A stretch of DNA of 64,000 bases, from assembly GCA_000002435.2 (NCBI GenBank), contig CM018789.1. One strand, given 5' to 3'. This document shows positions 11,411 to 56,598 of the stretch, piece by piece. This DNA is from Giardia intestinalis (Eukaryota). Below the pieces are notes generated by a model that was not told the DNA's origin, did no database searches, and saw only the letters and a program-made list of their open reading frames with translations. Positions within the stretch are counted from its first letter, which is position 1. Each line of letters opens with the position of its first letter. The position numbers and the translations under genes were made by a program.

Positions 11411-11459
11411 TCGCGCTCTGGCGATTAATTTAAAGGATAGGCGCTCATCTCCCCTGTAC

Positions 11460-15253: not shown

Positions 15254-15313
15254 TCGTAAATTTAAGCAAAACATTGGAGTCTTTAAGGTCAAGGCTTTAG
15301 GTTGGTGCGCTCA

Positions 15314-38103: not shown

Positions 38104-38361
38104 TCACTTTCTAGATGGATCCACCGTTATCTGCGGCTTGATAAGGGGGTTTATTTGTATTGCATATGTGCAGAACCACATGAGCCAAAAGCATAGCGTC
38201 GTGCCGCATGCGGTTACGATAACGGTCGATTTGTGGCCCTTCTTAGCTGAGAAGCTAAGAAGCACTGCAATTGCTCCAAGAGCAAAAAATATTCCTGTTG
38301 TAACACCCAGCTCTGTCCACTGTATCTTCACGCTATGCGGTACTCGGTTGTCACTCGCCAT
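38104..38361 (-). CDS. V-type H+-ATPase V0 subunit e
   Basis: 85-aa protein with two transmembrane helices. CFWLMWFCTYAIQINPLIKPQI parallels the conserved subunit-e stretch [22 protein letters not shown]. The ATG at 38361 is preceded by GAATTTTCAAAAAATTAAGAAGG. The listed longer ORF start at 38418 has no AT-rich element. Confidence 0.65.
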   Translation of the reverse strand: MASDNRVPHSVKIQWTELGVTTGIFFALGAIAVLLSFSAKKGHKSTVIVTACGTTLCFWLMWFCTYAIQINPLIKPQITVDPSRK

Positions 38362-38451: not shown

Positions 38452-41400
38452 CTATTTATATATGAGCTTTGCGATGTAACCCACCTTGACCACCTCCTTG
38501 TTTAATTGCCACATAAGGATCTGGCGCAAGGTCAGTAGAATGATAACTTCAGCGACGACAATCCAAAGCGAAATCACAGTCACCTGCTGAGAAAATCCAC
38601 TATTATAATCCGTTAACAGAAGAAGGAAGTTTTGTAGCTTCCCTAGTGCACCTCCCAGCGAGGATAACCACGTTATATAATCATGATAGAATGAAGTGGA
38701 CGCTTTGACGTGGTTGCCAATCTTATAGGTGCAGTCTATGAACTGAGTAAAGGTTGGTCCGGACTCCATGATGCTGCCATAGATCCTTTCTTTAGTCTCT
38801 GTTTGTTCTACTTTCTTGGACACCACATTGATCAGCATGGAGAGGGCATTGATATCGTGTACGAGCATGTCTTTTGTTAGCTCTCCGTACTGTCCCTGAG
38901 AGAGTACAACTATATGTTTGAAAGAGCTTCCTATGGCTCTCCGGAAATAGTAGAGAAACTGTGCCATCATGGAATAAAGTTGAAGATCAATCTCGGCGGC
39001 AGAAAGACGGATAATAGAGTAGGCCATTATAAAAACTATCGTAAAGATTACGAGCGAAAATATCGACGCATATACTATGAGAGTCGACGTACTGTACTGG
39101 AATATCAGAGGCTTGGTGCTGAAGATATTGCAAAGTTTTTTCAACGAGGCCACGAAGTTCTGTGAGACATTCTTTAGTTTTTGTGCTTGCAAATGGCACC
39201 TAAAAGGTGATTGCGAGCGTGCTTTATTTATTTCAAAAACGGCTCTCATGTCCACTGGATCTTTTTCTTCAGTTTCTCTGTTTGGTGCTATCTGATTTCC
39301 ACCGGGTGTCTCAAACCAACCCTGTTGCTGCTCACTCTTCAAGTTCTCTACATTTTCCACAGTTTCCACACACTCGTGGCATCTATACAATGGTATGGCA
39401 TGCTTGCACTTATACATGTGCTTTGTATTTGCATGCAGGAAGCCCGTTGGAAGAAACTGTACCGCGTTAGGAAGATGCTTTAGATATGCTTTGCTACACT
39501 GCAAATGCTTTATTGCGTGATAGGAGCAGGACGTGCCCTTGTCATTGAGGTATACCACCTCGGATATGAGACCATCTAGGCAGCTCGCGCAAAGATGCTT
39601 TGGAAATAGCATGCGTACAAATGCAGGGTATATCTTTATCTCATTACAATGCTTGTATAGATATTTTTGCAGGATCTTCTTTGAGTTTGTGTGCAGAGAC
39701 AGTTCAGGTCCAGTGCGGCAGTAGTCCACCGCAATTTCCATGTCGCCTGCGTCGGGGTATACCAGAACAGCAGTAAAATCCGGCCGTTCTGTGATGAGCT
39801 TTTCAGGATTATAGGATATTCGCTGCTGGATCTCGCTCCGTACCAATTCTCTCATTTCCGTGGTTAGCTTAATATACTGGTAGAGGTCAGCATCTGGAAT
39901 TTCCGTGATGCTTACTACTCTGTACACATTATTACTTTTAGATAGAATTACAATAAAGGCGGGCTTGAGGTATCGCTTGCCTTCAATGATGAGGTCTGGT
40001 GTCCCCAGAGTATCGTAATAAATAAGCGATCCAGATTGCATAAAGAAAGCAATGAGCAAGAGCACAATGATAGCCATGGTATACGCTATTATCCGCACAT
40101 ATGGAGGCGTCAAGCGCATCTTTTTCTCTACCATTTGGGCTAGACTAGCAAGGGACGCATTAGTGACTATTACCTTCTTGCCATGTGTGCGTATAAAGTA
40201 TAGTTCCTCGTGCTCCTTGTTGACGCTAATCCTATCAGCAACGTTCATTACAGCGCCTTTGATCATGGCTGAATAAATATCGAAAGTGTTGGATAGACTA
40301 CTATATGTGTAGACAAGAGCTAATTTCACGTCATCGAGCCTGTGCACGTGAAGCCCCAGCGCCATTTCATTGAGTCGTAAATCCGCTTCCGGTAGATACA
40401 GCAACGAGCTTTCGGTAGATGGAAGCATACTTGAAGCAACTGAGGATCTGAGCAAGCTGTTTATAACGTGATAGTAGTATTCATAAATCATGCTACAAAG
40501 AGTTAGACTGTGTGAGCTATTGTAATGAACCAGTTCAAGAAGCTTCTCGACATGGGTGGGATTGCCTTGAGCAGAGGAAGCGATAGTGTGCAGAAGAGCT
40601 TGAACACCCTCATCTGCTATGATATTTGTGTAGACGCCGGTGTGTGGCATTATTTTGATGTCTTCAGTAGCAAATAAGGGCATGCTCAGATTCAAGTTGA
40701 GGAGGACGGAATGAAACTCAACAAATCTAGTTCTAGTTTGTGATCTGTTCGACATTGTCAGGTTGAGGAGCGTCAAAGTATTGATGTCGCCCAACAAGTT
40801 TTGATATAACTGCATTGTATCCATAAACATGACTATATCGGGTTCAGCCCGTGTGTACGTGAGATTCTTCAACGATCGGATATCTATGATAAGGAAGGCA
40901 AGGACAACAAACTCCAAGATCCAACGGAGCACGCTAATCGATCCAAAGATGTACTGGGGAAGTGTGAAGCTGTGAAAAACACGTCTTAGGAGCAATAATG
41001 TAAGAAAAATGTCACAACATATCATCGAGGACAGCATCACACACAGAACCGTCACCGTCAACAGCCTATCAGCCTTGATGATTGTTACTTGAGACGCCTT
41101 TTCATAGGTTAGTTTGTTTATTGCAGCGTAATGATCAAAGATCGGGGTGAGATACTCTAGCGCAGACATGTATTGAAATATGGTTTGCTTATTAATTTTG
41201 TCAAATTTTTTTGGACAATCTGTGTATATGAACCCTAGCGCCGTATTGGATTGAACTGTTTTTTGACAAAAAATATTAGCCATGGCGATTCTCATTTGTA
41301 TGGCCTCTGCAATCACTTTGTACGCATAACTATTGGGCGGCTGCAGTGAGTCGAAGACAGCTGCGCATGAACTAAATTCGGGATTGAAGGACAAGTAAGA

Positions 41401-44400
41401 TGACATGTTGTTATTTCCAAAATAATCAGTAATGGCATCAGACACCAATGTCTTATGCCATTGATCTTCCGGGGGCTTATTTGTGAACTTTATCGCTAGG
41501 GACTCTGCGATGTAGTCCTTTCCGTATAGAGTGAACAACTCACCAAAAGCCTGATCAAAGTAATGCTCCGTTGTTGCTCGCTGGATAAGATCGTTATAAA
41601 AGCCACCATCTGGGCACATAAAAGCTAATGTATACCCCATGGAACGCAATTCGCTATTCAAAAGCTCCATGTTATACTCTGCAAGTTTCAAGATAATGCT
41701 AGAGGACTCTGGATACAGGGTCATCATCGCTTCTATTTGAAACTGTATCCCAGTGTTAAGTTCTGCCCAATCTGAAACTGTAGTGGGGGTACCAAAGAAG
41801 GAATAACTCATAGCTTTGGATGATCTTTGTAGCAATAAAGCGTAGACATTTGCTAGGTCATATGAATATGAGTTCTGCCTCAACTTATCGTTATAGTATG
41901 CACGTTGGTTGATGTAGCGCATGTCATCCAGAAAAGCTAGCGAGATCCAGAAAATGAAGAACAGAATTCCAATCAGAAAGCGCCAGCCCCACTGCTGCTT
42001 CCAAACGACAGTTTTACACCTAGAGCAGTTTGCTACATCCTGGGTCTGCTCGTTGAAATCACGCCATTCGTTTTGTAGACAAGCCGAGATGTCTTCTGAA
42101 AACGCCCCTAACTTGAAGCTGACGGTATCTGTCATAGCATCATCAATATTGAGGTTAACTCGCTGAGAAAGCGGCTCACTTTCGACAGACAAAATGCTCT
42201 GACTAGTTTGAGAACAACATGGTGAGAGATTAGAAAGTTGTGTGGCCGCGCTGGTTGCGGGCGGGATCAGCTCGGATTGTATTTGCATTCTTGCATAATC
42301 GTTACTAACATTGGAAGAGGAGTGGCTGATGTTAGTTCCATTTAGAAGCTGCTTCATAGTGAAGAGCATGGTTGCGTGGTTGGCCAGGACGTTGTTCTTC
42401 TTGTATACTGGGTTAGTGTCCAGGTCATAGAGCCCGCCTATACCGTAATTGTCAATCACATCCATTAAATAATTAGATAAGATGCATCGAAGGCTGTTAT
42501 TTTTCCTAAAAAGCCAGTAAAGCAATCTTGTTGTGTACACACACGCAAATAATACGCACACAATCTGTGCTAAAAGAGGAATAACTACTAATGACGGGTT
42601 AAAGCCGATTACCTGCTCTTCCATGCTATGCAAGGAGAGTGTGAGGTAGTCGTCAACATCTCTGCTTGTCAAGGGCGTTTGGTAAAATGTAAAGGTGTTG
42701 ATACCTGGGAAGAATGACAGCAAGATATCCCCTATCTTCTGTTCATAAGTTAGCTTATTAGTGATCGACGATGGCACGGTGTCTTGGTCAAGCAAACTAC
42801 TATAGTACATATATTGCAGCTTGTTTAAGAGGAAGGATTGCTGTGCTTGCTCCAGGGTGTCCTTGTAGAGGCCCTTATCAGAGACAGATTGAAAGTGCAT
42901 TTCTGTTTGATAACAATTAAGCTCATTGACAAATTTGGCAAAAATGCTTTTTCCATCTGAGTCAGTGATTGTATTAAGGAGGGAGTAGGTATTCTGTTCT
43001 GTGTCCTGATAGTAGGTGATGTTCAGTTTCTTGTAGAGTCCGCTGAGGGCATAGATGATGCCGCTACCAAAATTTATTAAAATATCTGAAATGGGTGACC
43101 AAGACACAAAAACTGGCATATCTAAATGGAAAAATTGACGGAAGTACTGCCTGCTATCTAGTCTTTTTTCCATATCTTCTTGCGTTGTATCTACATATGA
43201 CTCCAATAGAGAGTAATCAACTATATTGATCAAAAACGTATTTTCCAACGTACGTGGCTGCATGCTATAAGCTATTTCACTAAATGGGTGTGCAGCAAAC
43301 GTCAAGTACCTACCTTCTGGATCGTATCGAAGGGACGGGCATGATAATAGGAGTATAGGGTCTGAAATATAGGCTTTCGGGGTGAGATTCATGTCACGTA
43401 CACCGCTGTATACGTTAGCAAACTCTGGGGACACGTTGTAGGCTGGGCATGCGGCAAGCGAAAGGTCAATGATGTGCTCCAATTCGTGGGAGACTGGAAT
43501 GTACAGCTGAAACAACACCGCAAATACTATTGTTAGGGTGGAAAGAATATGCGAGAGATAAAGCTTCATGAAGAGAAGCAGCTTAACATATGCATTTTTG
43601 ATGGTGACCAAACTAGAGTGTGTGAGCCCGTCCAGAATCAAGTTAGGTTGCCCAGCACCTGTGGAAAACTCAGTAAATGGACTAGGCGAAGAAGGCGTTG
43701 CCGCTGTCGTATTCAAGAGCGTCATCATCAACTTGGCTATATATTTCTGGTACTGATCTCCAATGATACTGAGTAGATAATCTCGGTTATAGAACCGTGT
43801 GTCTAACTTCTTAAACGCGTAAGAGACAGAGTTATTCTCAGGTTGGAACCAGATGTTATCGAACTGTGCGTTCTGTTTAGTGTCATGTTTCAGAACTGAA
43901 AACAATGCCTCCATGACAGGGTCGTCCGCTGAGACAGGGAGAACGTAATTGGGGAGAGCAGAGACAGAGGAGTATAGACCACGATAGTAGGACAGGGCCA
44001 TTAGCTGCCCCATAAGGTTAAGAATTGGCACATATCTACTGAGTTGTTTAACAAGTGCCAGGTACCACGTAAAGAAAAAGAGGATAAGCAGGATCACCAC
44101 CAGTGCAAAGACGGCAATAAAATGGCCTAGCTCTGCGTACTCTTGCCGCATTCGCTGAATCAGATTGAACTCTACCTCGCGGTCAATCCCCTTAAAGACC
44201 CCAATAGGCTTCACGTCATTATTGCGTGTTTTACCTGTGTGTGTCTCTGCAAGTGCATCATCTTCCACATCCCCCGGGGCACTGGGAAGCAGCTGGGGTG
44301 TGAGAGCAGGTGGTCCTCTGATAAAGCGGATGGGGAAGTAGCAGGGGTAGATCCTTGATGAGACGTCGTTGATTGCCTGATATATGGTGCACAGCGCTGT

Positions 44401-47400
44401 TTTGACGCTCATTCCGATAGTTCCAGTGTTTGAGCTAAGCAGTACCAGCTTGCACACAATCTGCGATACACATTTGCTATTGCGAAAGCCTGAAAACGTA
44501 GCTACGATCTTCTCAAAGTAAAAGTTGAACTCGTGCTTTGTCTTGACGGTTGTCAAAAGCTTGGTTGCCGTTTTAGCCAAATCAGAGCAGATTCTTATGA
44601 ACCGTAACTGAGACCGCTGAATCCTGTTGGTTTTGCTTGAGATGGATATAACCTGAAATAGACTGTCATCAAAAAGACGTGTTGCGACTTCAGCACGTTC
44701 ACAAGCAAGTTGTTCGGTAGACTTAGAAAGCGGGACATGTCTGTTGGGCCTTATACCGTAGTTCTCACTGGTCAGCTCGAGATTTGCTGTGTTCCTTAGA
44801 GCGTCCAATGAGCTTCCAGGCCTCTTATTAGGCCTTTTAGGCTCTGCTCTGGGCATATTAACATAGACGTTCAGGCTTGCCGTTGCACTATCGCTGAAGA
44901 GAAAGTCGTGAATAGTCAGAGGGTACCTGTGATGGTCCTTACCTTTGAGTATGTCAAAAAGCTGTGCATAGGTTCCATTTCCCTTTAGCATGAGGACTGC
45001 GATTCTTTTGTGAATAGAGCATCGGCCAAGAAGAGACTCTCGACAAAGATGGCACGCAGAGGTGAGGGATTCTGCCGAATTCCTAAGTACACCGACATAG
45101 TGATCAAGATCAGGACCATTGCGCTTGATCAAGTGCATGATGTGACGTGCATTGGTGTTCCGAAAGGCTTCGGCCACTGTTGTGAAGGATGGAGTTAACG
45201 GAGTCCCATTCTGGGCCGTGACGCTATTGCTCATATCACTCTGAGCTCTATCCTTGAAGTGTAACGAGTTAATTATAAGGTCTCGAGTTGCGTTCTTTTT
45301 CTCAATAAATGGTCTGCGATTAAGGTCGGACATTATGTAGTCTAGTAACAAGGTGCTAAGATGTATGTTTTGTGCCTTGGAATTAGGTGGGGCAGTGCTT
45401 GTGGCAAACTGTTCGCTGGTAAAGTATCCTGCTCCTAAAACCTGTAGGGCACACGCTTGCTCGTACTGAATCAGATGCTTTTTACGCCAAGAGTAGGGCA
45501 GCATATTGTAGAAGTAACTATTGTAGTCGATGCGGTGCACCAAAGTAGAGAGATACTCTGGCGTTACACGGGAGCAATTGTATTTTGATATCGGACCATA
45601 GATATCAAAGATGTTGTCAGTAGAGTAGAAGCTTAACAAGTATGTATAGATGTTCTCCAAGGCTGTTCTATTGTGAAAGTCCCGATGCTTGATAGAGTTC
45701 ATGGATGCCTTGAAATTAACCAGTGGAAGATAGAACGAAAGAGACTCCAGATGAAATTCATATCTGAGCGTCTCTAGCAAGACTAGTATCGTGGGATTGT
45801 CGAGTTCTTCTTGGAATAGAGTGAGGTAGAGCTTCAGACAGTGCTTGAGTGCTGCTTGATAAGCATTGAGTTCTATCTTTAAAAAGCGCATCACCTTGAC
45901 CGAGTCAAAGTCGGTGTACATGTGACTAATCGTAGAAAACATGGAAGAAATGACTGGGTTTGCTTTATGCTTGCTAAGACGTAGATGTGATGAGATCATG
46001 AACGCATACATTTTTATCTTGAACAAGTGCTCAATGGCTTGCTTATAAAATCCACTGGCCTGCTTGAACAGCATTCTTCCGCAAATGGTGTGGTTTTGCG
46101 AGGGACTAATAAAGTGATGCAGAGAGTTTAGCTCTGCATACAAGACCTTTAAGCGGGGGCTTTCGCGAGACAGTATTTTCATACCCTTTCTAAAGCATAG
46201 GCCATTGGTCAGTTTCGAGAAGGCAGAAGGGTCCGACATGGAGTTAGTTGATGTCACAATGTGATCCTTCATCTTTAGTTGCCTCAGATTTTCCTCTAGA
46301 AAGGCGTAACCGTATTGCCTCGTAGGATCATCATCTCCGCAAGACGGCGCCTCTTCTTCTCCGTCGCTTCCAGGCTTCCACTGAGTGGCTACCTTCACAT
46401 GCGTGGGGCTCTCGCTAAGCCTGGTTGCGCCGCCTTCCATCATTGAGTCAAGAAATTCGTAGAAATTGGTTCTACAAAAGATTTGAAATTCCTTTACCCC
46501 TTCTAGCTCAAAGTTGCTGATAAGAAAGAGAATAAATTGATAGTACAACTGGCTCACTTCGTAGAGCAGAGAGAATAGTTTGAACTGTTGTGCGATCAAG
46601 TATGCCAGATTCTCGGGGGTTGTGAACAACTCAGGGCCCATGTAAATTTGTGTTAGCTGCGACAGAACAACCTCGTATGCTTGAAACCAATTTTGCACAT
46701 CCTTACTTTTCCGCTGGAACTCCTTGTGCATGGAAAAATAGTCCAACTCTGGAGGCAGGAAATCGGTGTCATCTTTGCCAGAGCCTCCACTTCTGGAAAT
46801 AGATCTAGAGTTAGGAAAGTCTTTGCTGGCAGCCCCGGCACCAGTGCTGGCACTCCTATCAGCTGCAAATCCGGATCTAGGTTCAGATCCAAAGGGAGAC
46901 GGTTGGTCAGGGATCTTTGCATTTGGGTGGACCTGGCAAGATGCTTTAGTCTCCAGTTCCTCAATCGCCTTGAGCACCCCATAAACCTCATTTTTTGTGA
47001 TGACATCAGATAACTTTATCAGCTGAACTCTGCACTGCATCTCCAGCCGCCGTTTAACTAACTTGTTAATAAACAATGCAAAGTAGTTTGTCCTGGGCGC
47101 AATATCCACGGTGTTCAGAAGTTGGTAGCAGTCCAGCAAACGGTGGTAGGCAGTTAGGTATTGGATATAGTGAGAGCCCTGCTTACAGAAGTGGGGACGA
47201 TTCTTTATCATGAAAATGGTGCGCTTGAAAATCTCAAACAAAAAGACGTGGACAAGAAACATGCTAAAGATGATTCTTTCAAGCTGATAGTTAAGTTGAA
47301 GAAGCAGAACGTCGGTAATATGGTTAGAAGACGATGACCTGTGTAGCGAGCTACGCCCAAAATTGAGAAGGCTTTCTCTGTTCGTAAGCAGCCCTTCATA

Positions 47401-50160
47401 GCAGTGCTTGTAGAAGGCGCACATTCTAATCCACGGGAGAGCCGCCGATGACATTGTGCCCAGAGATCCTCTTAGTATTCGCATATAGATGATGTGCATC
47501 ATCTTCTTTACCGACTTAGGATTTCGCAAAGAATGGGTAAGAACGGTCGATGCCGCAGGTGGCGGAGACTTGGCTTGTTCAAAATAACTTTCATTACTAT
47601 CACTGGTAGTAGACCCATTGCTAAAAAGCTCACTGTCGACTGGGTTCTCCTGATCTACGCATGCTTGGTCGTGCCCTGACGTAGGCATCTCTGTATCACG
47701 AAGAATGTCCGGCATGTGATAACTGAAAAAATTGCGGTAATAGCTCGAGTTGGAGTATACTAAGGCAAACATAGCAGTAGAAAAACTGTACAGAAGGAAC
47801 AAGTGGTTATCCGAAAACTCCAGGTCAGTCCGCCGAAGGGCAGGAAGATGCAAATCAGTCCTAATATTTGCTTCGTCTGTAATGTTATTAACGAAAAGAG
47901 TATCCTCAATAAACTCTCGTAACTTCTGTATAACTCTGTTTTGAAAGAACTGATGCACAGAATCGGGCCCTTTGAAGTCTTCTGCCACACCTTTTAAAGC
48001 GTCTATATTGACATTACCATTAATATCCTGTGACGATACGTTGTTTGTAAGGCCTTTACCCTCATTTGCGCCTCCATCGATCTCAACCTCATCAGTGTCT
48101 AAAGGCATCGAGCTCACCTCATCTAGTACTGAATCACCCGGACCCCCACTTGTGGTACCTAAACAACTAGTATCCTCTGAATATGAAATAGTGTTCAACA
48201 TGTATGTGCATAGCACGATCTTAGTATAGTTGGACGTATAGTCTCGGAGCCAGGAAAACTGCAGCAGAGACATCACGTACTGCTGCAACTTATTAATTAC
48301 CATCATATCGATTATGTTTTGATAAACAGACCCTCTAATGGTTAATTTAGAAAGAGCCATTCCCTTTCTAGAGAAGGTTTCAATTAGATCAGAAGTGGAT
48401 TTAATACTGCTGAGACACGTCAGTATATACGCTGCAGCAGTTGGAAGATATGTGGTGGAGATGCCAAAGCTTCTAACGCTGTCAAGATAACCCTGCACAT
48501 CTAATTCGCTTATAGATAGATAGTTTGGCAAGAAGATTCGTGGCACCTTAGACATATACATATTCTTGAGTACATGGTGCATCAGAAAATCACCTGGAAT
48601 GGTGGTGAACTCTACTCTCTGGTGAAAAGACGCTGCCTCACTCTCGGAGTTAGCGGTATTATCATGGGATGAAAGGCTTATAGAAGAGCGTTTGTTGAAC
48701 GTAAATGTGTGCAGGTAGGGACTCTCTATAAGATTTGCGTCAGGATCGTATGTCATCTCTCCCAGAGCGCCATATCCTGGTCCTCTAGACATGGTCCACC
48801 TTTCGTCGTCCAACGTTGTAGCAGTTATGTCTGAGGCCAATGGAGAGCTTCTGTTTGCAGTGATGTTGGGAGTTAGGTTGGCAGAGGTGACGAGTGCGCT
48901 AGCGGTCCTAGGTTCCTGCAGGAGTGACATGCCCTCGGCAAGATCGAGTCTGCTTTCAATAAGGTCGCGTGAATACAGTATATTAGTATCTAGAAAAGTG
49001 TCACGGAACTTTGTGAAGATCTTCTCGGTGTATTTGTAGTTGTAGGTAGGGCTGTGATGAGAAAAGGTAAAGCCGTGGACTCCGAGAAGCCTTTGGATAA
49101 TTTTAACAGAAGCCAAGTTAGCTGTTGTATTTGGCAACCCACGGATTCGGAGAAAAATATTGTGATACAAGTAGGGTAAATAGAGGGTCACCCGAGAGAT
49201 GAGCTTCATTTCATGAAACACCTTTAGGAGTCTAATATTTAACCGGATATAAAAGGTAATGACGGAGATAGCTACAACAACAAAGATTAAACCAGTAGAG
49301 ACTCCCAGAGCCAACTCATAATTGGCGAACGGAAAACAAAACAATAGGGTAGGAATGGCAGCTAGAGATCCAATGAAAGTAATTAGTCCCACAAAGTACA
49401 GATCCAGACCAGTATTTCCAATGAGTGTGGGCGAACTTGCAGCTAGTGTCAAATGACAGCCCATAATAAATGCAAGCAAGAATGCCGACAGCTGTGGATA
49501 CGGCTCAGCGATAGAGCGCAATAAATGAATAAGAATAAAAGTAAACCCGTACGCTATATCTGCAAGGGGATACGTGGGTAAGAACTCCGTATTCAGCTGA
49601 AGCATTGGGAGAACAAAAATATTGAGAAAAACCTCCTGACAGAGGATAATCAAGAGGGTAAGAATATGCATATTCAAGTACACGACCTTCCAGAAGGAGG
49701 TAAAGGCTTGATAGAAGAATAGCTGATCAAGAAGGTAGGGGGCAAGGCAAATTTGCGTAAAACAGATTGACCACATAACCAGAAGACGATACTTATGCTG
49801 CACAATGCCGTGGTTCTTCTTGATGATCACTAGAATAACGATGGCAGGAAAGATGATGGCAAGAAAGACAATGAGAAGCGTCAGGATGGCGTTCCGTACC
49901 GTTACTGCAGGAATCTGAAGAAGAAAGGACACAGCATAGTAGATTAGCTTTTGAAATTTGGTGAAAGGCCTCGCGTCATCCAGGGAATAAACTATCAGAG
50001 TATAAGCCGGAATTACAAGGCGAAGAGTCGAAAAGTAAGACAAGGTATTAATGAAAGCAATTATCCATCGTGTGCTTTTAAGAGATGCAGTGCTGAAGAG
50101 CTCAATAAGCAAAGATCCGAACGTTGAATTCCAAGACGATGGAATGTTAGAAAATGGCAT
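38452..50160 (-). CDS. Giant (3,902 aa) polytopic membrane protein of unknown function
   Basis: A single uninterrupted 11,709-nt ATG-initiated ORF. About 10 hydrophobic helices fall in the first roughly 330 aa. A soluble region of about 1,500 aa follows, and further helix clusters then recur through to the C-terminus (for example FIAVFALVVILLILFFFTWYLALV, VVIPLLAQIVCVLFACVYTTRLLYWLF, FLIGILFFIFWISLAFL, LTVTVLCVMLSSMICCDIFLTLLLL, IIAYTMAIIVLLLIAFFM, LIVYASIFSLVIFTIVFIMAYSII and VISLWIVVAEVIILLTLRQIL). No P-loop or other catalytic motif was recognised. Confidence 0.8.
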   Translation of the reverse strand: MPFSNIPSSWNSTFGSLLIELFSTASLKSTRWIIAFINTLSYFSTLRLVIPAYTLIVYSLDDARPFTKFQKLIYYAVSFLLQIPAVTVRNAILTLLIVFLAIIFPAIVILVIIKKNHGIVQHKYRLLVMWSICFTQICLAPYLLDQLFFYQAFTSFWKVVYLNMHILTLLIILCQEVFLNIFVLPMLQLNTEFLPTYPLADIAYGFTFILIHLLRSIAEPYPQLSAFLLAFIMGCHLTLAASSPTLIGNTGLDLYFVGLITFIGSLAAIPTLLFCFPFANYELALGVSTGLIFVVVAISVITFYIRLNIRLLKVFHEMKLISRVTLYLPYLYHNIFLRIRGLPNTTANLASVKIIQRLLGVHGFTFSHHSPTYNYKYTEKIFTKFRDTFLDTNILYSRDLIESRLDLAEGMSLLQEPRTASALVTSANLTPNITANRSSPLASDITATTLDDERWTMSRGPGYGALGEMTYDPDANLIESPYLHTFTFNKRSSISLSSHDNTANSESEAASFHQRVEFTTIPGDFLMHHVLKNMYMSKVPRIFLPNYLSISELDVQGYLDSVRSFGISTTYLPTAAAYILTCLSSIKSTSDLIETFSRKGMALSKLTIRGSVYQNIIDMMVINKLQQYVMSLLQFSWLRDYTSNYTKIVLCTYMLNTISYSEDTSCLGTTSGGPGDSVLDEVSSMPLDTDEVEIDGGANEGKGLTNNVSSQDINGNVNIDALKGVAEDFKGPDSVHQFFQNRVIQKLREFIEDTLFVNNITDEANIRTDLHLPALRRTDLEFSDNHLFLLYSFSTAMFALVYSNSSYYRNFFSYHMPDILRDTEMPTSGHDQACVDQENPVDSELFSNGSTTSDSNESYFEQAKSPPPAASTVLTHSLRNPKSVKKMMHIIYMRILRGSLGTMSSAALPWIRMCAFYKHCYEGLLTNRESLLNFGRSSLHRSSSSNHITDVLLLQLNYQLERIIFSMFLVHVFLFEIFKRTIFMIKNRPHFCKQGSHYIQYLTAYHRLLDCYQLLNTVDIAPRTNYFALFINKLVKRRLEMQCRVQLIKLSDVITKNEVYGVLKAIEELETKASCQVHPNAKIPDQPSPFGSEPRSGFAADRSASTGAGAASKDFPNSRSISRSGGSGKDDTDFLPPELDYFSMHKEFQRKSKDVQNWFQAYEVVLSQLTQIYMGPELFTTPENLAYLIAQQFKLFSLLYEVSQLYYQFILFLISNFELEGVKEFQIFCRTNFYEFLDSMMEGGATRLSESPTHVKVATQWKPGSDGEEEAPSCGDDDPTRQYGYAFLEENLRQLKMKDHIVTSTNSMSDPSAFSKLTNGLCFRKGMKILSRESPRLKVLYAELNSLHHFISPSQNHTICGRMLFKQASGFYKQAIEHLFKIKMYAFMISSHLRLSKHKANPVISSMFSTISHMYTDFDSVKVMRFLKIELNAYQAALKHCLKLYLTLFQEELDNPTILVLLETLRYEFHLESLSFYLPLVNFKASMNSIKHRDFHNRTALENIYTYLLSFYSTDNIFDIYGPISKYNCSRVTPEYLSTLVHRIDYNSYFYNMLPYSWRKKHLIQYEQACALQVLGAGYFTSEQFATSTAPPNSKAQNIHLSTLLLDYIMSDLNRRPFIEKKNATRDLIINSLHFKDRAQSDMSNSVTAQNGTPLTPSFTTVAEAFRNTNARHIMHLIKRNGPDLDHYVGVLRNSAESLTSACHLCRESLLGRCSIHKRIAVLMLKGNGTYAQLFDILKGKDHHRYPLTIHDFLFSDSATASLNVYVNMPRAEPKRPNKRPGSSLDALRNTANLELTSENYGIRPNRHVPLSKSTEQLACERAEVATRLFDDSLFQVISISSKTNRIQRSQLRFIRICSDLAKTATKLLTTVKTKHEFNFYFEKIVATFSGFRNSKCVSQIVCKLVLLSSNTGTIGMSVKTALCTIYQAINDVSSRIYPCYFPIRFIRGPPALTPQLLPSAPGDVEDDALAETHTGKTRNNDVKPIGVFKGIDREVEFNLIQRMRQEYAELGHFIAVFALVVILLILFFFTWYLALVKQLSRYVPILNLMGQLMALSYYRGLYSSVSALPNYVLPVSADDPVMEALFSVLKHDTKQNAQFDNIWFQPENNSVSYAFKKLDTRFYNRDYLLSIIGDQYQKYIAKLMMTLLNTTAATPSSPSPFTEFSTGAGQPNLILDGLTHSSLVTIKNAYVKLLLFMKLYLSHILSTLTIVFAVLFQLYIPVSHELEHIIDLSLAACPAYNVSPEFANVYSGVRDMNLTPKAYISDPILLLSCPSLRYDPEGRYLTFAAHPFSEIAYSMQPRTLENTFLINIVDYSLLESYVDTTQEDMEKRLDSRQYFRQFFHLDMPVFVSWSPISDILINFGSGIIYALSGLYKKLNITYYQDTEQNTYSLLNTITDSDGKSIFAKFVNELNCYQTEMHFQSVSDKGLYKDTLEQAQQSFLLNKLQYMYYSSLLDQDTVPSSITNKLTYEQKIGDILLSFFPGINTFTFYQTPLTSRDVDDYLTLSLHSMEEQVIGFNPSLVVIPLLAQIVCVLFACVYTTRLLYWLFRKNNSLRCILSNYLMDVIDNYGIGGLYDLDTNPVYKKNNVLANHATMLFTMKQLLNGTNISHSSSNVSNDYARMQIQSELIPPATSAATQLSNLSPCCSQTSQSILSVESEPLSQRVNLNIDDAMTDTVSFKLGAFSEDISACLQNEWRDFNEQTQDVANCSRCKTVVWKQQWGWRFLIGILFFIFWISLAFLDDMRYINQRAYYNDKLRQNSYSYDLANVYALLLQRSSKAMSYSFFGTPTTVSDWAELNTGIQFQIEAMMTLYPESSSIILKLAEYNMELLNSELRSMGYTLAFMCPDGGFYNDLIQRATTEHYFDQAFGELFTLYGKDYIAESLAIKFTNKPPEDQWHKTLVSDAITDYFGNNNMSSYLSFNPEFSSCAAVFDSLQPPNSYAYKVIAEAIQMRIAMANIFCQKTVQSNTALGFIYTDCPKKFDKINKQTIFQYMSALEYLTPIFDHYAAINKLTYEKASQVTIIKADRLLTVTVLCVMLSSMICCDIFLTLLLLRRVFHSFTLPQYIFGSISVLRWILEFVVLAFLIIDIRSLKNLTYTRAEPDIVMFMDTMQLYQNLLGDINTLTLLNLTMSNRSQTRTRFVEFHSVLLNLNLSMPLFATEDIKIMPHTGVYTNIIADEGVQALLHTIASSAQGNPTHVEKLLELVHYNSSHSLTLCSMIYEYYYHVINSLLRSSVASSMLPSTESSLLYLPEADLRLNEMALGLHVHRLDDVKLALVYTYSSLSNTFDIYSAMIKGAVMNVADRISVNKEHEELYFIRTHGKKVIVTNASLASLAQMVEKKMRLTPPYVRIIAYTMAIIVLLLIAFFMQSGSLIYYDTLGTPDLIIEGKRYLKPAFIVILSKSNNVYRVVSITEIPDADLYQYIKLTTEMRELVRSEIQQRISYNPEKLITERPDFTAVLVYPDAGDMEIAVDYCRTGPELSLHTNSKKILQKYLYKHCNEIKIYPAFVRMLFPKHLCASCLDGLISEVVYLNDKGTSCSYHAIKHLQCSKAYLKHLPNAVQFLPTGFLHANTKHMYKCKHAIPLYRCHECVETVENVENLKSEQQQGWFETPGGNQIAPNRETEEKDPVDMRAVFEINKARSQSPFRCHLQAQKLKNVSQNFVASLKKLCNIFSTKPLIFQYSTSTLIVYASIFSLVIFTIVFIMAYSIIRLSAAEIDLQLYSMMAQFLYYFRRAIGSSFKHIVVLSQGQYGELTKDMLVHDINALSMLINVVSKKVEQTETKERIYGSIMESGPTFTQFIDCTYKIGNHVKASTSFYHDYITWLSSLGGALGKLQNFLLLLTDYNSGFSQQVTVISLWIVVAEVIILLTLRQILMWQLNKEVVKVGYIAKLIYK

Positions 50161-50286
50161 ATACTAAGTGCAACGAAACTCTAGGTGGCACGAACACCTT
50201 TAGAAACAGTATGGCTTGTGGAAACGCCGGTTACAGAGCAACGGCACACTCCGGAACTTTCTTTTACAAAAAAGGTTTGTTAGAGC

Positions 50287-51603
50287 ATGGGTTGTGCCGC
50301 ATCAACTCCCGATGTTGCTGATGCCACGGCAGTAATGGGAAACCACGGCCCGGAAAAGCATCGTGCTAAGGGTATGTCTAATAAAGGCATATCTCTGAAG
50401 TCTATGGAGAGCATTAGATCTGCCATTGAATCTCTCTTGATTAACGAGCCTGAACTGACCAAGCTGATGACGTCTTTCAGCAAGGAACATCTGTTTATGT
50501 TTGCAAAGGATTATCAGACTCAAACGGGGACAGACCTGCTATCCCTTCTGCGCGAAAAACTAAATGGTCCTCTGGAGAAGCTCATTCTTTCTTCTTTCAA
50601 GCCAGACGTTACTCTGCGGACAGAGCTGATCAGAGAGTCTCTTCAGGGAAAGGCAACAGATATTGAACAACTCACAGACGTTGTCCTTACTCTAAGTGAG
50701 TCTAGGGCCTGTGAAATAGTTCAGAACTACGATTTACTGTACGGTGGCTCTGTCATTACAGACATCAGACACGACTACAACGGCGATAAGCTCTGGCAGA
50801 GGCTGATTACCCGGATTCTATCTTCTAAACGTGTGTCCAGGTCGTCCCTTGCTATGCAGAGCACTACTTTGGCCTCCGATGGTGATGTCGATACACATGC
50901 AGTGGGTGCGGAGGCCAACACTGGTACTCTGGGAAAGTTACTGGTGGCGGACGCAGAAAGGCTTGTGATGGACATTCGCGAACGCAACTTTGAACATCTC
51001 CTGCTCCTCATGGCCACTGCGCTCCCCGCAGAGTACGTCTCTATCTGCAAGAAGTACTTTGAAATGAAGGGAACTGTACTACGCCAGGATATTGCAGATG
51101 CGCTTGAGCATCGTCCTGAAGAACGGTATGCACTGCTTCTTGCACACGATTACCTGCATAGTCCTGCCGCTGCCTATGCATTCATGGCCCACACGGCCCT
51201 GGTGGCAGGGATCTCCAGAGACGATGCTCGGCTGACTCGGGCTGCCATATTGAGCTACGAAGAACACCCCGATGTTCCAGCGGTTTATCGTGAGCTATAT
51301 GGCGTTACCCTAGAGGATGCAATTGAGAAGACAGGGACTGGGAGCTACGAATCCACGCTTCTAATACTTTGGAAGATAGACAGACCAAAGGATCCTGCGG
51401 CAGGACCCGAGGCCGAGAACGGTCCCGCAGAGACCGCTGCGCACGCTGGAAATAAGGCAAAGCAATCGTCAAAGGGAAACAAGAAGAGCGACAGCAAGGC
51501 GGACAAAGAGGGTGCGGCGACGCCCGTTCTGCAGAATGACACGGTGGAGGAGAGGCTGCCTACGCCTGCAGCGAGCGAATCCTCGACTCCCCGCGGCGAC
51601 TGA
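50287..51603 (+). CDS. Annexin-like alpha-giardin family protein with an N-terminal dual-acylation motif (MGCxxS)
   Basis: The N-terminus MGCAAS carries a Gly2 myristoylation site and a Cys3 palmitoylation site. Annexin-repeat signatures include KDYQTQTGTDLLSLL and YRELYGVTLEDAIEKTGTGSYESTLLILW. The tail is Lys/Ser-rich. AGTGAAC lies 2 nt after the stop. Confidence 0.55.
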   Translation: MGCAASTPDVADATAVMGNHGPEKHRAKGMSNKGISLKSMESIRSAIESLLINEPELTKLMTSFSKEHLFMFAKDYQTQTGTDLLSLLREKLNGPLEKLILSSFKPDVTLRTELIRESLQGKATDIEQLTDVVLTLSESRACEIVQNYDLLYGGSVITDIRHDYNGDKLWQRLITRILSSKRVSRSSLAMQSTTLASDGDVDTHAVGAEANTGTLGKLLVADAERLVMDIRERNFEHLLLLMATALPAEYVSICKKYFEMKGTVLRQDIADALEHRPEERYALLLAHDYLHSPAAAYAFMAHTALVAGISRDDARLTRAAILSYEEHPDVPAVYRELYGVTLEDAIEKTGTGSYESTLLILWKIDRPKDPAAGPEAENGPAETAAHAGNKAKQSSKGNKKSDSKADKEGAATPVLQNDTVEERLPTPAASESSTPRGD

Positions 51604-52050: not shown

Positions 52051-55000
52051 TTAAAACGGCAATAAGTCAAATAGTGCTAGCAAGCGATATTCAGCCCCGG
52101 CAAGCACTCCAAAGTCAATACACACGGACCACCCGTGAATGTTAGCATCGATTGCTCTACTCGATATTCTTGCAATATGCTTGTGGTCTTGAGATTTGGA
52201 GGAGAGCTTTAAGGCTATCTTTTTGTCCACGTATGTAAAAAGATTGTTTGCCTCACTTTCTACCTCAAGCCATGACCGAAAGTAGTTCCGCAAAGAAACT
52301 GGGAGCGTTGACAAAGCTGCTGAAGAGGATATGACCTCTTTTAACTTTGCAATATCATTAGTGATTGCCTGCTCCTTCATGCGTGCCAAGCAGCTTTGCA
52401 GATGTACAGAGGACGTACTTTTTTCACCATGCTTTTGTACTGTGTGCTCGGTTGTTCGAGCTACTGTTCTTTTTAACCTTCTGTTGATTGTTTTGTATGC
52501 AGTGTAGCGCAATTTAACCAGGTCACTTAAGGTTGCATCAGCACCGGTTAAGGCATCTATAAATCTTGACCGAAACTCAGCTATTTCTCGCCGAATAGCA
52601 GGTAGCTCTGTATCTCCACTGGGGAAGTCCTTAATTGTTTGCTCATATGCTTGTTTGAGCTCAGCTGCACGTTTGGCTAATTCGCGTTGACAAAGAGCAG
52701 ACTTAATCGACCTACGCTTTTTCAACACACCGCTTTGAGGCCTTTCAGACTCGGTTATCGAACTAGTGGTTATATTCGAAGCCTTGTTGCAAGCGAAAGG
52801 CAAGGATAGTCCTGGTACGCTTTTTGGCCTAGGAGGAAGGCCAAGCATAGGTGGATGAGGGAGAATGGCGGATTGTTGCTCCTTTATATCGTTTTCGCTA
52901 TGCACAATAGTGCTATTTATATCCTTCTCCTCCTGTTCTTTAACCACAAGGAACTGTGTAGCACGGAACTCATTCTCTGCAGTGAAGACATCGATATTGA
53001 TTGGACGTCTGCAAGCATGCTCTATCCCGGAAACAAATTCATCGTACGCCAATGCTCTTGTCAAACTCGGGTACAGAATGTTCAACTCACACGTGTATTT
53101 CTCTAGGTCGTCACGTGCGCCAATAATACCTCTTTGGATAAGTAGTTGGGACGTATCATATACACCATTGTTTGGTACGGAAGAAGCAGGAGAGGACGCC
53201 GTTTTCCAGGTGCTTTGGTTGGTATCATACATATTGGAGCAGATTGTTTCATCTACTTGCGCAGAAATGCTTTGTATATTATATAACGCATTAGAGCTAT
53301 TTTCTGAGTCTTTGGGGGGATGTGGACACGGCCGCGCAGATGCCGGTGAGGGCAGCTTGTCTACTCGCTTCCTTGTCAGCTTTTGCCGGAGCACCTGTTC
53401 TGCATACTGTGTGAGAGGTGCACCTTTACTATGATCACTGTTTAAAGGAAATCGCCCATATGGCTGTCCGGCTTTGTGCTTGGGCGTGAGGAATCCCGTT
53501 TGCGGCGTACTGGCCTGACCTTCCAGATAGTTGTCGGCTTCTTTGTTAAGGTTGATAGCTATACTATTTCTGCGTGCTCTACTCTTCTGTTCTTGCCGAG
53601 ATGACAGCGCCGCCTGGGAATGGGGGTAGAATATTCCATTGCGGATGTACACCGAAAGGATGTGTTGACACTTTCCAGATGCAGCCAAGAACAACAGCGA
53701 ATGTTTTCTGCACACATATGTGCCACAGACCTCTTTCAACTCTTTAATTTTTTCTTGTGGAAGAAGCGTCATTATGCGGTCTGCCTGTCTAGATGAAACT
53801 GACAATATATCTTGGATTAGATAGTTAGTTAGGCGTGCATATCCAGATCCAACAGATTTTGCGCTTGTTTGACGCAAGTCGAGGGGGAGACTGGGTAGCT
53901 GTAAGTACTGATTCTGCCTTGCTCCATTGCGGCGATCAATCTGACCCACAAAGCTTTCATTTTTTGCCACAATCTGATTAAATTCAGATTTAAACTGCTT
54001 AAGTTGCTTGGTTTTCCCGCCGATCTTGGCCTGGATTGCACGCGACTCGTTTGTGATGGCGTCCAGCAAGTCAGACATCTGTGATAGCTTTGCTTCCAAA
54101 AATGCAGCTACATCATATGCATTACTCATTTGTTCTTCTGTAACAGAGAACTTCACAGGCATCAAAGGCCAATCTCTTATACTATCCTTGTATATCGGAC
54201 ACAGGGCATTAATTCCGTGAGGGCAATACACCCTAAGTTCGCCCAACATTGTCTGCATTTCCTTCATGGCTTCACAGTAGGAGATGAAGTTTTCCTTGGG
54301 AAATTGCTTCTCCTCTATTCCCAATGCACTAAGGTCAGTACTTCTCTTTATTGTCGACCCTTTAAATTGCAACATGCCGATACTCTGCACCTCGCTCAAT
54401 AACTGAAGGATCTGAGGCTTAATAGCCAACGACTTCAGATGCCGTACTTCAATCTGTTTCATCTGTGAGTTCTTCAAATTATTTGTGCATTGACTCGTTG
54501 CTCCTTCCTCTGTGGTTGCCTTGTCAATCCTGTCGAACTCATGTCGTACAATAGAAACCGCAGAGTCGGTTAACTCTATGAACATTTCCTGGAGAGAGGT
54601 ATCGCTGGTATGCTGCACGCTTTCGTTTATGTCGCCTGGTTGTGCACATATAGTACGCCCATCTTCAGAGATAAACGCCTGTTCTACCACTGTTTGGGTT
54701 TCTAGAAAGGATGGAAGAGCCCTGAGCGGCAAGGAGCGCAATAGATTGACAAAGGTAGAAACACACTCAATGAACTCAAATCGATGAACTTGGTCTTGAT
54801 AGTCCATGGACAGTATCTCCTCTTCCACCTCCATAATCTTCTCTTTCAAAAGCATCAATTGCTCCATGTAGGCATACCTCATGCGCGAGATCATTTCTGT
54901 AAATATTTCTGGAAAGATTGATTTATTGTCGAGAAGAAATTCCAGGATTGCCCGTACATTTTCGTCCTCATCACCAACATTTTCTACTAAAAAGTCTCGC

Positions 55001-56598
55001 ACAGCGTCAGAGCTTTCTTTTATCCGTGCGATCCCTTCGTGAACATCTATGACACTCTTCCTTTCCTTGATATTTAACATTATATCCTTGAGATTGTTTG
55101 CAGTTACATACAGCCGTTTGGAGCCGGTTTCCGGCCAATAGGTTGATTTGACCTTTGCACAGTCCAGATTATGGTGCTCTTTTTTAATATCTTGGTTGTC
55201 TATACTTGTTTCAGGATACTGATTGCTTTGTTGTCCTGAGACTAGATATCGTTCCAGTTTGCAAACGGCAGCACTTGCGTCCTCAAGAAGAACAGCTACT
55301 GCGCATCTGCTTTCATTCCATGTCTCGAAAATCATCTCCGCTTCTATAGTTGTCTTAGAACCAATGCTTTGTAATTGATCGAAAAGAGCCCTGTTACCCT
55401 GCTCTATAGCGTCTACAAGATCATCTGAGGAGAGTGTTTGGAAGATAGCGACGGGGAACAACATATCACACTCTGCCTTATGCAGTGCAGAGTAGCTACG
55501 GGCACAGTCGGTGCAGCAGCCAATTGCGCAGCCGCAGCGATGGCAGATAGTGTAGCTTTCCACAGACATCGAACTGCATACAGGACACGCGATGGGTGTC
55601 ACCACATCGCGGCATGCTTTCGTAATGACAGAAATCTGAGCTTGAAGCGGCATGTCAATCCACATAAGAAGATCGTGTCTGAGAGTGTCCAAAAGTAGAC
55701 TGTATGCTTTGATAACAGCATAATGATCTTGTGCATACTCATAGCAGTTATGTGTAGACTGGTTGGGTGGAAGAGGTACACCATAGTCACCAACACCCAT
55801 ACTCGTGAGCTGCTCCTCTGACCAGCCAATTGGCATTCTATTGTCTTTATGCTGTCGCTTAGCCCTCTGTGCTATGGGGAGCCTAGCATTTTGATACGCA
55901 GGAGGTAGTCTAAGACTTTTTAGCTCACCAATCCTAGTATCACATTCCTGTCCAATCTGTTCAAGAATTAAATCTGAGCCTTCCTCATCAGTGTACTCCC
56001 TCTTGGTGCGTGGATCAATGGAGTGCTTAAGGCTCACTGCCAACAGAAGTGAGCGATTGGCAAGAGAGGTGTAAATATTAGTGAGCGCTTTAAACGGACA
56101 AAGTGCGTTTCTGTGTGCTGCTCGATGCTGCAAGGTGCTTTCGTTAACACGACTAGTAACAAGAATATCTGAAATGCTCAAACAGTAAGGATCATCGGCC
56201 AGTTTCCGGGGAAGAATAAAGATTTGAAAAGCTTTGGTCTGAACCATGTTTAGAAGGGATTCGATAGCCATGTCATGCATAACTGTCCTGAATTGATTGC
56301 TATTCAGAAAGGCAACTTCCAACTTAAGTATCACCGGTTGAAAAAGGTCGTTAAATGTCAGTCCACTGGAAAGCAGACATGTTATTTGGGTACTAATTGA
56401 CTTATCTGTTATTCCAATAGCAGGACTGGCTGTGCACTTGATTTTAGGAGTTGCCTCTGTTCTAATTCTAAACGCCACTCCTGACCGTTTAACAGTGGTC
56501 TTGAAAGAGCAGGATATCGTGTTTCTGATTGTCTCAATGGAAAGAAAGCGGCCATATTCGCTGTCAAATACAAATATTACACGCTCATTGTGGAGCAT
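52051..56598 (-). CDS. Hypothetical protein (1,515 aa) with a Cys/His-rich zinc-finger-like cluster
   Basis: ATG-initiated long ORF. The cluster reads CPVCSSMSVESYTICHRCGCAIGCCTDCARSYSALHKAEC. The protein has extensive predicted coiled coil. Confidence 0.6.
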   Translation of the reverse strand: MLHNERVIFVFDSEYGRFLSIETIRNTISCSFKTTVKRSGVAFRIRTEATPKIKCTASPAIGITDKSISTQITCLLSSGLTFNDLFQPVILKLEVAFLNSNQFRTVMHDMAIESLLNMVQTKAFQIFILPRKLADDPYCLSISDILVTSRVNESTLQHRAAHRNALCPFKALTNIYTSLANRSLLLAVSLKHSIDPRTKREYTDEEGSDLILEQIGQECDTRIGELKSLRLPPAYQNARLPIAQRAKRQHKDNRMPIGWSEEQLTSMGVGDYGVPLPPNQSTHNCYEYAQDHYAVIKAYSLLLDTLRHDLLMWIDMPLQAQISVITKACRDVVTPIACPVCSSMSVESYTICHRCGCAIGCCTDCARSYSALHKAECDMLFPVAIFQTLSSDDLVDAIEQGNRALFDQLQSIGSKTTIEAEMIFETWNESRCAVAVLLEDASAAVCKLERYLVSGQQSNQYPETSIDNQDIKKEHHNLDCAKVKSTYWPETGSKRLYVTANNLKDIMLNIKERKSVIDVHEGIARIKESSDAVRDFLVENVGDEDENVRAILEFLLDNKSIFPEIFTEMISRMRYAYMEQLMLLKEKIMEVEEEILSMDYQDQVHRFEFIECVSTFVNLLRSLPLRALPSFLETQTVVEQAFISEDGRTICAQPGDINESVQHTSDTSLQEMFIELTDSAVSIVRHEFDRIDKATTEEGATSQCTNNLKNSQMKQIEVRHLKSLAIKPQILQLLSEVQSIGMLQFKGSTIKRSTDLSALGIEEKQFPKENFISYCEAMKEMQTMLGELRVYCPHGINALCPIYKDSIRDWPLMPVKFSVTEEQMSNAYDVAAFLEAKLSQMSDLLDAITNESRAIQAKIGGKTKQLKQFKSEFNQIVAKNESFVGQIDRRNGARQNQYLQLPSLPLDLRQTSAKSVGSGYARLTNYLIQDILSVSSRQADRIMTLLPQEKIKELKEVCGTYVCRKHSLLFLAASGKCQHILSVYIRNGIFYPHSQAALSSRQEQKSRARRNSIAINLNKEADNYLEGQASTPQTGFLTPKHKAGQPYGRFPLNSDHSKGAPLTQYAEQVLRQKLTRKRVDKLPSPASARPCPHPPKDSENSSNALYNIQSISAQVDETICSNMYDTNQSTWKTASSPASSVPNNGVYDTSQLLIQRGIIGARDDLEKYTCELNILYPSLTRALAYDEFVSGIEHACRRPINIDVFTAENEFRATQFLVVKEQEEKDINSTIVHSENDIKEQQSAILPHPPMLGLPPRPKSVPGLSLPFACNKASNITTSSITESERPQSGVLKKRRSIKSALCQRELAKRAAELKQAYEQTIKDFPSGDTELPAIRREIAEFRSRFIDALTGADATLSDLVKLRYTAYKTINRRLKRTVARTTEHTVQKHGEKSTSSVHLQSCLARMKEQAITNDIAKLKEVISSSAALSTLPVSLRNYFRSWLEVESEANNLFTYVDKKIALKLSSKSQDHKHIARISSRAIDANIHGWSVCIDFGVLAGAEYRLLALFDLLPF

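Follow-up and report, generated by a model that had tools for sequence, protein, structure and literature searches.

Piezo contains approximately 38 transmembrane (TM) helices, approximately 36 of which are peripheral and arranged as nine repeated four-helix units. Prominin displays two large helical extracellular loops that alternate with short cytoplasmic loops, and it has conserved cysteine residues. Giardia combines a very reduced endomembrane system with a proteome of which a large share has no assigned function. GL50803_112121 lies in a 64,000-nucleotide stretch of Giardia intestinalis contig CM018789.1 (assembly GCA_000002435.2; the whole stretch is referred to as the window), and its product was compared with these and other systems. 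The complete coding sequence (window positions 38452–50160, minus strand) is a real, intact, single-exon gene for an integral membrane protein. As a sequence-only reading of the window had proposed, the product is a genuine giant polytopic protein without a recognizable catalytic domain. Its architecture tentatively points to a tether- or sensor-type membrane scaffold.

The gene and its distribution

The open reading frame (ORF) of GL50803_112121 is the largest in the window and covers approximately 18% of it (11.7 kb). It runs from an ATG start through 3,902 codons to a TAG stop, and its translation contains no internal stop. The ORF listing and the translation bear out the sequence-only reading, which described an unbroken, ATG-initiated ORF and did not give the strand, which is minus. 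An exact-sequence look-up identified the product with that of G. intestinalis WB gene GL50803_00112121 (XP_001704844.1; UniProt A8BTT7), publicly annotated as 'hypothetical protein', and thereby assigned the window to Giardia assemblage A. The same look-up found the identical 3,902-residue product on 118 contigs, the longest of 1.49 Mb, including contigs from independent assemblies. Neither the gene identifiers nor those of its orthologues were found in the full texts searched, and '112121' is absent from the searched supplements of Giardia proteomic and transcriptomic studies. No localization, expression, interaction or phenotype data for GL50803_112121 were found.

Full-length orthologues are present in G. 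intestinalis isolates P15 (85% identity to WB) and GS (72%) and in two more lineages of the G. intestinalis complex (71% and 66%). The best-conserved stretch (residues 880–2075) served as the profile for an exhaustive HMMER search of 1.84 billion representatives, which added three sequences. G. muris GMRT_16314 (3,549 residues) matched with an E value of 4.5e-133 and is 27% identical to the WB protein. A 3,770-residue protein designated P0036, encoded at positions 5001–16313 of a 19.9-kb contig of SRR31929897, matched with an E value of 8e-48 and is 24% identical to the WB protein. The third addition is a 264-residue fragment. Both GMRT_16314 and P0036 align to the WB protein from the N-terminal membrane domain through the C-terminal tail. 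The source genome of P0036 is compact and apparently intron-poor (45–49% G+C) and may belong to a Giardia species not yet sequenced or to a sister genus. The P0036 gene has neighbors unlike those in the window, namely cytidylate kinase, two acyltransferases and Utp25.

Altogether, collinear orthologues of 3,549–3,907 residues with conserved N- and C-termini occur in seven lineages, and each genome seen contains one copy. In a comparison with the 66%-identical orthologue, overall non-synonymous change (pN) is 0.19 versus a saturated synonymous change (pS) of 0.80, and pN/pS is 0.13–0.33 across all 300-codon bins.

The library of the exhaustive search includes the EukProt entries for both Giardia species, and the search yielded no homologue of non-Giardia type at E ≤ 0.001 for residues 880–2075. 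The other residues were searched by a word-index prefilter only, using the protein, a five-sequence profile and a seven-sequence profile against 5.8 billion clusters. These word-index searches returned matches from the G. intestinalis complex alone, and the search with the seven-sequence profile missed even the G. muris and P0036 homologues. A metagenome scan found no relatives. As far as these searches reach, the family is limited to Giardia and one Giardia-like organism.

No Pfam family matched the whole protein at E ≤ 1, and none came near its cut-off at E ≤ 10 in ten overlapping 520-residue pieces. Nothing reached the curated cut-off in any of the seven homologues or for the two cysteine motifs scanned alone. 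Kinase, cyclase and ABC families are likewise without a match at these thresholds, in agreement with the sequence-only reading. Against the sequences of the Protein Data Bank (PDB), neither the single protein nor the seven-sequence profile gave a meaningful match. The sequence-only reading had proposed internal-repeat detection and profile and structure searches as checks. An all-versus-all hhalign comparison of 15 segments detected no internal repeat, the sole matches being the overlaps built into the segments, and profile and fold searches place the protein in no characterized family. With no detectable relative beyond Giardia-type organisms and no detectable known domain, the protein is an unclassifiable orphan.

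The absence of a P-loop noted in the sequence-only reading is right in substance. The lone regular-expression match to Walker A, AETHTGKT (residues 1971–1978; 44227–44250, minus strand), is a chance match in an acidic, non-β context. It is not conserved in the 66%-identical orthologue, reads YTGRM in the homologue P0005 and is absent from G. muris and P0036. P-loop NTPases and ABC transporters were rejected on the lack of a conserved Walker A, of an LSGGQ motif and of a Pfam NTPase match.

Membrane topology and conserved motifs

TM helices were located by hydropathy, calculated for the WB protein alone, as an average over the orthologues and then separately for G. muris and P0036. The N-terminal membrane domain (residues 26–303; 49252–50085, minus strand) contains approximately eight close-packed TM helices (residues 32–50, 95–113, 126–144, 166–184, 199–217, 224–242, 253–272 and 283–303), the positions of which are conserved in G. 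muris and P0036. A further segment (residues 76–92) is ambiguous. The dense N-terminal bundle of the sequence-only reading is thus recovered with eight to nine helices in residues 32–303 rather than about ten. The helices are joined by short conserved loops, and P105, W130, P185, P195, P198, Q223, G248 and N249 are invariant. A bias in lysine and arginine content (K+R) puts the 114–125 loop and the segment after residue 303 in the cytosol. AlphaFold2 was run as two jobs with seven-sequence alignments (residues 1–1200 and 2703–3902), and the helices of the N-terminal domain reach a predicted local distance difference test (pLDDT) value of only 50–66.

The membrane domain is followed by a TM-free block of approximately 1,700 residues (residues 304–2013; 44122–49251, minus strand), which is predicted to be cytosolic from K+R content. 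The soluble block of the sequence-only reading, estimated there at about 1,500 residues, therefore exists in a larger size, and the claim of TM clusters along the whole length does not hold, because the middle 44% of the protein lacks TM helices by hydropathy. Within the block, hydropathy detects only weak amphipathic peaks (residues 960–985 and 1196–1214). The block is helical where modeled, and its best-conserved parts are residues 900–1100 and 1300–1600. A CxxC-x7-CxxH motif with the sequence C-x2-C-R-x-S-L-x-G-R-C-x2-H (residues 1703–1717; 45010–45054, minus strand) is invariant in all seven homologues and is probably a structural zinc site of the CCCH type. The motif scanned alone matched no Pfam family.

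The first TM helix after the block (residues 2014–2034; 44059–44121, minus strand, as for all of the following features) is at a conserved position, and a juxtamembrane motif on its N-terminal side (RGPPxLxPxLxP ... GI[DP]RxxE ... GH) is conserved as well. Loop L1 (residues 2035–2525; 42586–44058) comprises approximately 490 residues and is predicted to be extracytoplasmic from the K+R bias. The next TM helix (residues 2526–2548; 42517–42585) is flanked by K+R counts of 0.4 on its N-terminal side and 3.2 on its C-terminal side. Loop L2 (residues 2549–2725; 41986–42516), predicted to be cytosolic, contains a CxxC motif (C2712 and C2715), of which C2715 is invariant. The following TM helix (residues 2726–2744; 41929–41985) directly precedes an invariant DD pair (residues 2745 and 2746) and leads into the approximately 290-residue loop L3 (residues 2745–3037; 41050–41928). 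L3 is predicted to be extracytoplasmic and contains four invariant, spaced cysteines (C2849, C2932, C2965 and C2982).

A TM hairpin (residues 3038–3057 and 3073–3092; 40885–41049), recognized from hydropathy and K+R content, encloses a short basic turn (residues 3058–3072) on the putative cytosolic side. It is followed by the approximately 260-residue loop L4 (residues 3093–3355; 40096–40884), which is predicted to be extracytoplasmic from K+R content and is modeled at pLDDT values below 50, and by a TM helix at a conserved position (residues 3356–3375; 40036–40095). Loop L5 (residues 3376–3693; 39082–40035), predicted to be cytosolic, is basic (12.3% K+R) and contains a conserved small β/α unit (residues 3390–3470) and a Cys/His cluster (residues 3524–3597; 39370–39591), which in the G. 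intestinalis complex has the full C3H2C3 spacing of RING-H2. Another conserved TM helix (residues 3694–3713; 39022–39081) precedes the approximately 145-residue loop L6 (residues 3714–3859; 38584–39021), predicted to be extracytoplasmic from the K+R bias. The last TM helix, also at a conserved position (residues 3860–3880; 38521–38583), leads to a basic C-terminal tail (residues 3881–3902; 38455–38520) that is predicted to be cytosolic and in which W3884, N3887, G3894 and L3899 are invariant. The sequence-only reading had listed at least seven further helix clusters after the soluble block. Their number and positions stand, and the clusters resolve into single helices with one hairpin pair (3038/3073).

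In total, the protein contains 16 or 17 hydrophobic helices, eight in the N-terminal domain followed by eight, possibly nine, mostly isolated helices that are separated by loops of 150–490 residues. The same picture is obtained in three deep lineages (WB, G. muris and P0036), in which the loop lengths, worked out by hand from where the helices lie, are also similar. Since TM positions are kept at 24–27% identity, the helices are not mere chance hydrophobic stretches.

Topology was assessed from K+R counts in the 15-residue flanks of each helix, taken from five divergent homologues. The strongly biased helices, which start at residues 95, 126, 283, 2526, 3038 and 3073, all fit a single model if a hydrophobic segment in L1 (residues 2203–2223) is not a TM helix. 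This segment is clearly hydrophobic in WB and P0036. In G. muris it lacks a peak above 1.6 and reaches approximately 1.4 on the Kyte–Doolittle scale by hand. Counting it as TM breaks the positive-inside pattern, and the segment is an ambiguous candidate for a TM helix. The resulting model, plausible but unproven, contains 16 TM helices with cytosolic N- and C-termini. It would place residues 304–2013, L2, the 3058–3072 turn and L5 in the cytosol and L1, L3, L4 and L6 on the extracytoplasmic side.

The distribution of conserved cysteines provides independent support for this model. Thirteen cysteines are invariant in all seven proteins. The invariant cysteines of CxxC type (C1703, C1706 and C1714 with H1717; C2715; and C3524, C3527, C3585, C3594 and C3597) all reside in predicted cytosolic parts, and the remaining four are evenly spaced and all reside in L3, where they would fit disulfides. 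The density of N-glycosylation sequons shows no consistent topology pattern.

The AlphaFold2 models are nearly all helical, and two parts are usable, namely residues 2762–3002 of L3 (pLDDT 60–85) and the β/α unit (residues 3402–3472, pLDDT 58–68). In the model, the helical bundle of L3 runs on into the flanking TM helices. L3 resembles a generic up-down four-helix bundle that would extend from the membrane, a likeness of the model rather than of homology. Foldseek against the PDB returned nothing at E ≤ 0.001.

Function and alternative explanations

The sequence-only reading had named a channel, a scaffold or an organelle-membrane system as candidate roles, which agree with the evidence but are generic. 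The architecture of GL50803_112121 makes a membrane scaffold that is neither enzyme nor pore and acts as a tether or sensor the favored, still tentative, interpretation. In such a scaffold, the compact eight-helix N-terminal membrane domain would lead into the approximately 1,700-residue helical cytosolic platform, which the invariant CCCH zinc site would stabilize. The chain would then recross the membrane eight times as isolated helices and would present four folded loops outside the cytosol (L1, L3, L4 and L6) and two inside it, L2 and L5, the latter with a second Cys/His zinc cluster. The extracytoplasmic helical-bundle loops would have a binding target on the luminal or outer face, and the paired TM helices that continue into the bundles would couple these loops mechanically to the cytosolic platform. 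The platform, in turn, would recruit partners such as the cytoskeleton or the trafficking machinery. The isolated TM helices and the large folded loops would favor a scaffold or sensor over a channel.

Several points weigh against this interpretation. Function is read from architecture alone, and the eight N-terminal helices could instead make up a transporter or channel module. The topology holds only if the 2203–2223 segment is discounted, and the TM helix at residues 3356–3375 weakly violates the positive-inside rule. Both AlphaFold2 models are poor, with mean pLDDT values of 41.2 (residues 1–1200) and 41.6 (residues 2703–3902), and the exhaustive homology search covered residues 880–2075 only.

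The best-surviving alternative, which is nonetheless unlikely, is that the protein is a strongly diverged orthologue of some known pan-eukaryotic membrane protein (a transporter, a channel or a lipid-handling or glycosyl-transfer machine), the relationship being masked by fast sequence evolution in Giardia. Identity has already fallen to 24–27% within Giardia-like organisms, so a signal to other eukaryotes could be lost, and both the restricted span of the exhaustive search and models too poor for fold recognition leave room for such an origin. However, none of the seven homologues matches a Pfam family, neither PDB sequences nor PDB folds gave a match, and no homologue outside Giardia-type sequences was obtained at E ≤ 0.001 from a library in which the Giardia entries of EukProt were present. 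No conserved eukaryotic family is known to have the arrangement of eight TM helices, 1,700 residues and eight isolated TM helices, which also counts against a hidden orthologue.

It is rather improbable that the N-terminal eight helices, alone or with the C-terminal eight, form a permeation pathway that the loops gate or regulate, an arrangement that would be Piezo-like in function and not in ancestry. The tightly packed eight-TM domain, in which the short loops are conserved and several Pro, Trp, Gln, Gly and Asn residues are invariant, would suit such a role, as would the very large size without an enzymatic domain. A channel is opposed by the lack of a Pfam match to Piezo or to any other channel or transporter family, by the lack of four-TM units and of any internal repeat, and by approximately 16 TM helices versus approximately 38 in Piezo. 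Moreover, long stretches of sequence separate the isolated C-terminal TM helices, and a published survey reported no Piezo and no MscS homologue in Giardia (PMC3681921).

The Cys/His cluster of L5 raises the possibility that the protein is a RING-H2 ubiquitin ligase embedded in the membrane, as are Hrd1, gp78 and TRC8. L5 would then recruit an E2 to ubiquitinate clients, in the membrane or the lumen, that the other domains recognize; the chances of this reading appear slim. L5 is basic and predicted to be cytosolic, as a ligase would require, and the spacing C-x2-C-x17-C-x2-H-x3-H-x2-C-x38-C-x2-C at residues 3524–3597 is exact in all five orthologues of the G. intestinalis complex. The general RING-H2 pattern, C-x2-C-x(9-39)-C-x(1-3)-H-x(2-3)-H-x2-C-x(4-48)-C-x2-C, matched none of 20,000 shuffled versions of the protein in which composition was preserved. 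However, ligands 3–6 (C3545, H3548, H3552 and C3555) are replaced in G. muris and P0036, and only C3524, C3527, C3585, C3594 and C3597 of the cluster are invariant across the genus. Neither cross-brace site would therefore be complete in G. muris or P0036, and the RING reading was downgraded accordingly. The RING profiles (zf-RING and zf-C3HC4) did not match the isolated 121-residue region at E ≤ 1, and its sole Pfam match was zf-AD with an E value of 0.031, below the cut-off of that family. Typical RING residues, found in the motifs C-x-[IV]-C and C-P-x-C, are missing, and pLDDT values across the cluster are 24–35. The genus-wide element consists of two CxxC knuckles and C3585, which suggests a single structural zinc site to which four ligands were added in the G. 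intestinalis lineage.

A more far-reaching proposal is a long shot. GL50803_112121 would be the founder of a Giardia-specific class of transmembrane coupling machines, in which outer bundles sense or bind a ligand or a surface, for instance luminal cargo, cyst-wall material or the mucus or epithelium of the host, and paired TM helices signal to a zinc-stabilized 2,200-residue cytosolic platform. A complete RING-H2 finger gained in the G. intestinalis lineage would turn this machine into a ligand-gated membrane ubiquitin ligase or a cytoskeletal anchor without a counterpart in other eukaryotes.

The weakest alternative, a mis-assembly that joined two or more genes or a pseudogene in decay that is open by chance, draws only on the extreme length of the ORF and on an annotation that goes no further than 'hypothetical protein', and it is refuted by the comparative data, since the same product recurs on 118 contigs and in independent assemblies, the seven lineages are collinear with both termini conserved, purifying selection limits amino-acid change in each 300-codon bin along the whole length (pN/pS 0.13–0.33) while synonymous sites are saturated, and 11.7 kb free of stops could not be maintained by chance.

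A single-copy protein of approximately 16 TM helices that purifying selection keeps intact across the genus must matter at a membrane. Should it prove to act at the parasite surface or in the endoplasmic reticulum (ER) as a tether, sensor or ligase restricted to the genus, it would offer a parasite-specific target and a handle on Giardia cell biology. Its novelty consists of the lack of a detectable relative or known domain and not of a demonstrated new mechanism; such orphans are common in Giardia, and GL50803_112121 is already in databases as a hypothetical protein.

Gene neighborhood and known systems

The giant gene is flanked by two genes of recognized families. On the same strand, approximately 90 bp downstream of its stop, is an 84-codon gene for V-ATPase subunit e/H (38107–38361, minus strand; PF05493, E = 1.7e-15). 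This small gene falls below the length limit of the ORF lists, has an A-rich stretch directly upstream of its ATG and occupies the same position in the locus of the 66%-identical lineage (L002). An annexin-domain gene of the α-giardin type (50287–51603, plus strand; PF00191, E = 1.4e-16) is divergent from the giant gene, with 126 bp (50161–50286) between the two start codons, and the pairing is conserved in L002. The gene order common to the window and L002 is annexin, giant gene, V-ATPase subunit e (84 residues), Smr, protein kinase and WD40. Next to the annexin gene, a 1,515-residue ORF with an ATG start (52051–56598, minus strand) matches no Pfam family at E ≤ 0.001, and the same applies to an 823-residue ORF (30795–33266, minus strand) and a 625-residue ORF (59369–61246, minus strand). 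A 694-residue ORF (28564–30648, minus strand) encodes a peptidase of family M49 (dipeptidyl-peptidase III type, E = 5e-147), an ordinary housekeeping gene.

The window also contains a G+C-rich island (20554–27181) with a G+C fraction of 0.58–0.65 versus 0.42–0.50 elsewhere. The island comprises two variant-specific surface protein (VSP) genes (20554–23052, minus strand, and 24557–27181, plus strand; Pfam VSP E values of 1e-48 and 1e-153, respectively) and several long overlapping opposite-strand ORFs, which are typical of GC-rich coding DNA.

The giant protein differs from the VSPs and high-cysteine membrane proteins of Giardia. Those proteins have a cysteine-rich CxxC ectodomain and a single C-terminal TM helix, whereas the giant protein contains 1.6% cysteine, four CxxC motifs only and 16 TM helices, and it does not match the VSP Pfam family that both VSP genes of the window match strongly. 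It resembles other lineage-restricted giant membrane proteins of parasitic protists, which are likewise single-copy, genus-restricted, very long, multi-pass, without domain matches and annotated as hypothetical. These proteins form a descriptive class without sequence relationship, from which no mechanism is transferable.

Piezo resembles the giant protein as a very large eukaryotic polytopic protein with no enzymatic domain and large inter-helix loops. The Giardia protein differs in that no Piezo family of Pfam matches the whole protein, its pieces or the seven homologues, in having 16 or 17 helices without four-helix units or repeats by hhalign, and in its 1,700-residue TM-free block, which has no equivalent in Piezo. 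Profiles, the number of helices and the lack of repeats all led to the rejection of Piezo, in line with the sequence-only reading, which had considered a Piezo-like architecture and discarded it.

The ER-resident RING-H2 ligases Hrd1, gp78/AMFR, TRC8/RNF139 and RNF145 are multi-pass proteins with a cytosolic C3H2C3 cluster, a combination predicted for the giant protein in the G. intestinalis complex only. In the Giardia family, four of the eight ligands are unconserved in G. muris and P0036, no RING profile matches, and the cluster is flanked by TM helices on both sides instead of following the last of them. The Giardia protein is also three to six times larger than these ligases.

An arrangement reminiscent of the Prominin/TTYH pentaspan proteins is predicted in the C-terminal half, where the TM helix at residue 2726, a 290-residue outer loop, the TM helix at 3038, a short inner turn, the TM helix at 3073, a 260-residue outer loop and the TM helix at 3356 follow one another. 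The Giardia protein differs from prominin in lacking a Prominin match in Pfam at E ≤ 10 and in having 11 more TM helices and approximately 2,200 cytosolic residues.

The L3 bundle was compared with the periplasmic four-helix bundles of chemoreceptors and histidine kinases (PDB 3va9, 6db1, 6s18 and 2d4u), with identities of 8–11% and Foldseek matches that are not significant. L3 is approximately twice as long as these bundles and has four conserved cysteines, and the Giardia protein has no Pfam match to 4HB_MCP, TarH or similar families and no downstream HAMP, kinase or methyl-accepting module. The bacterial sensor bundles may resemble the Giardia protein in a possible mode of working and not in family membership.

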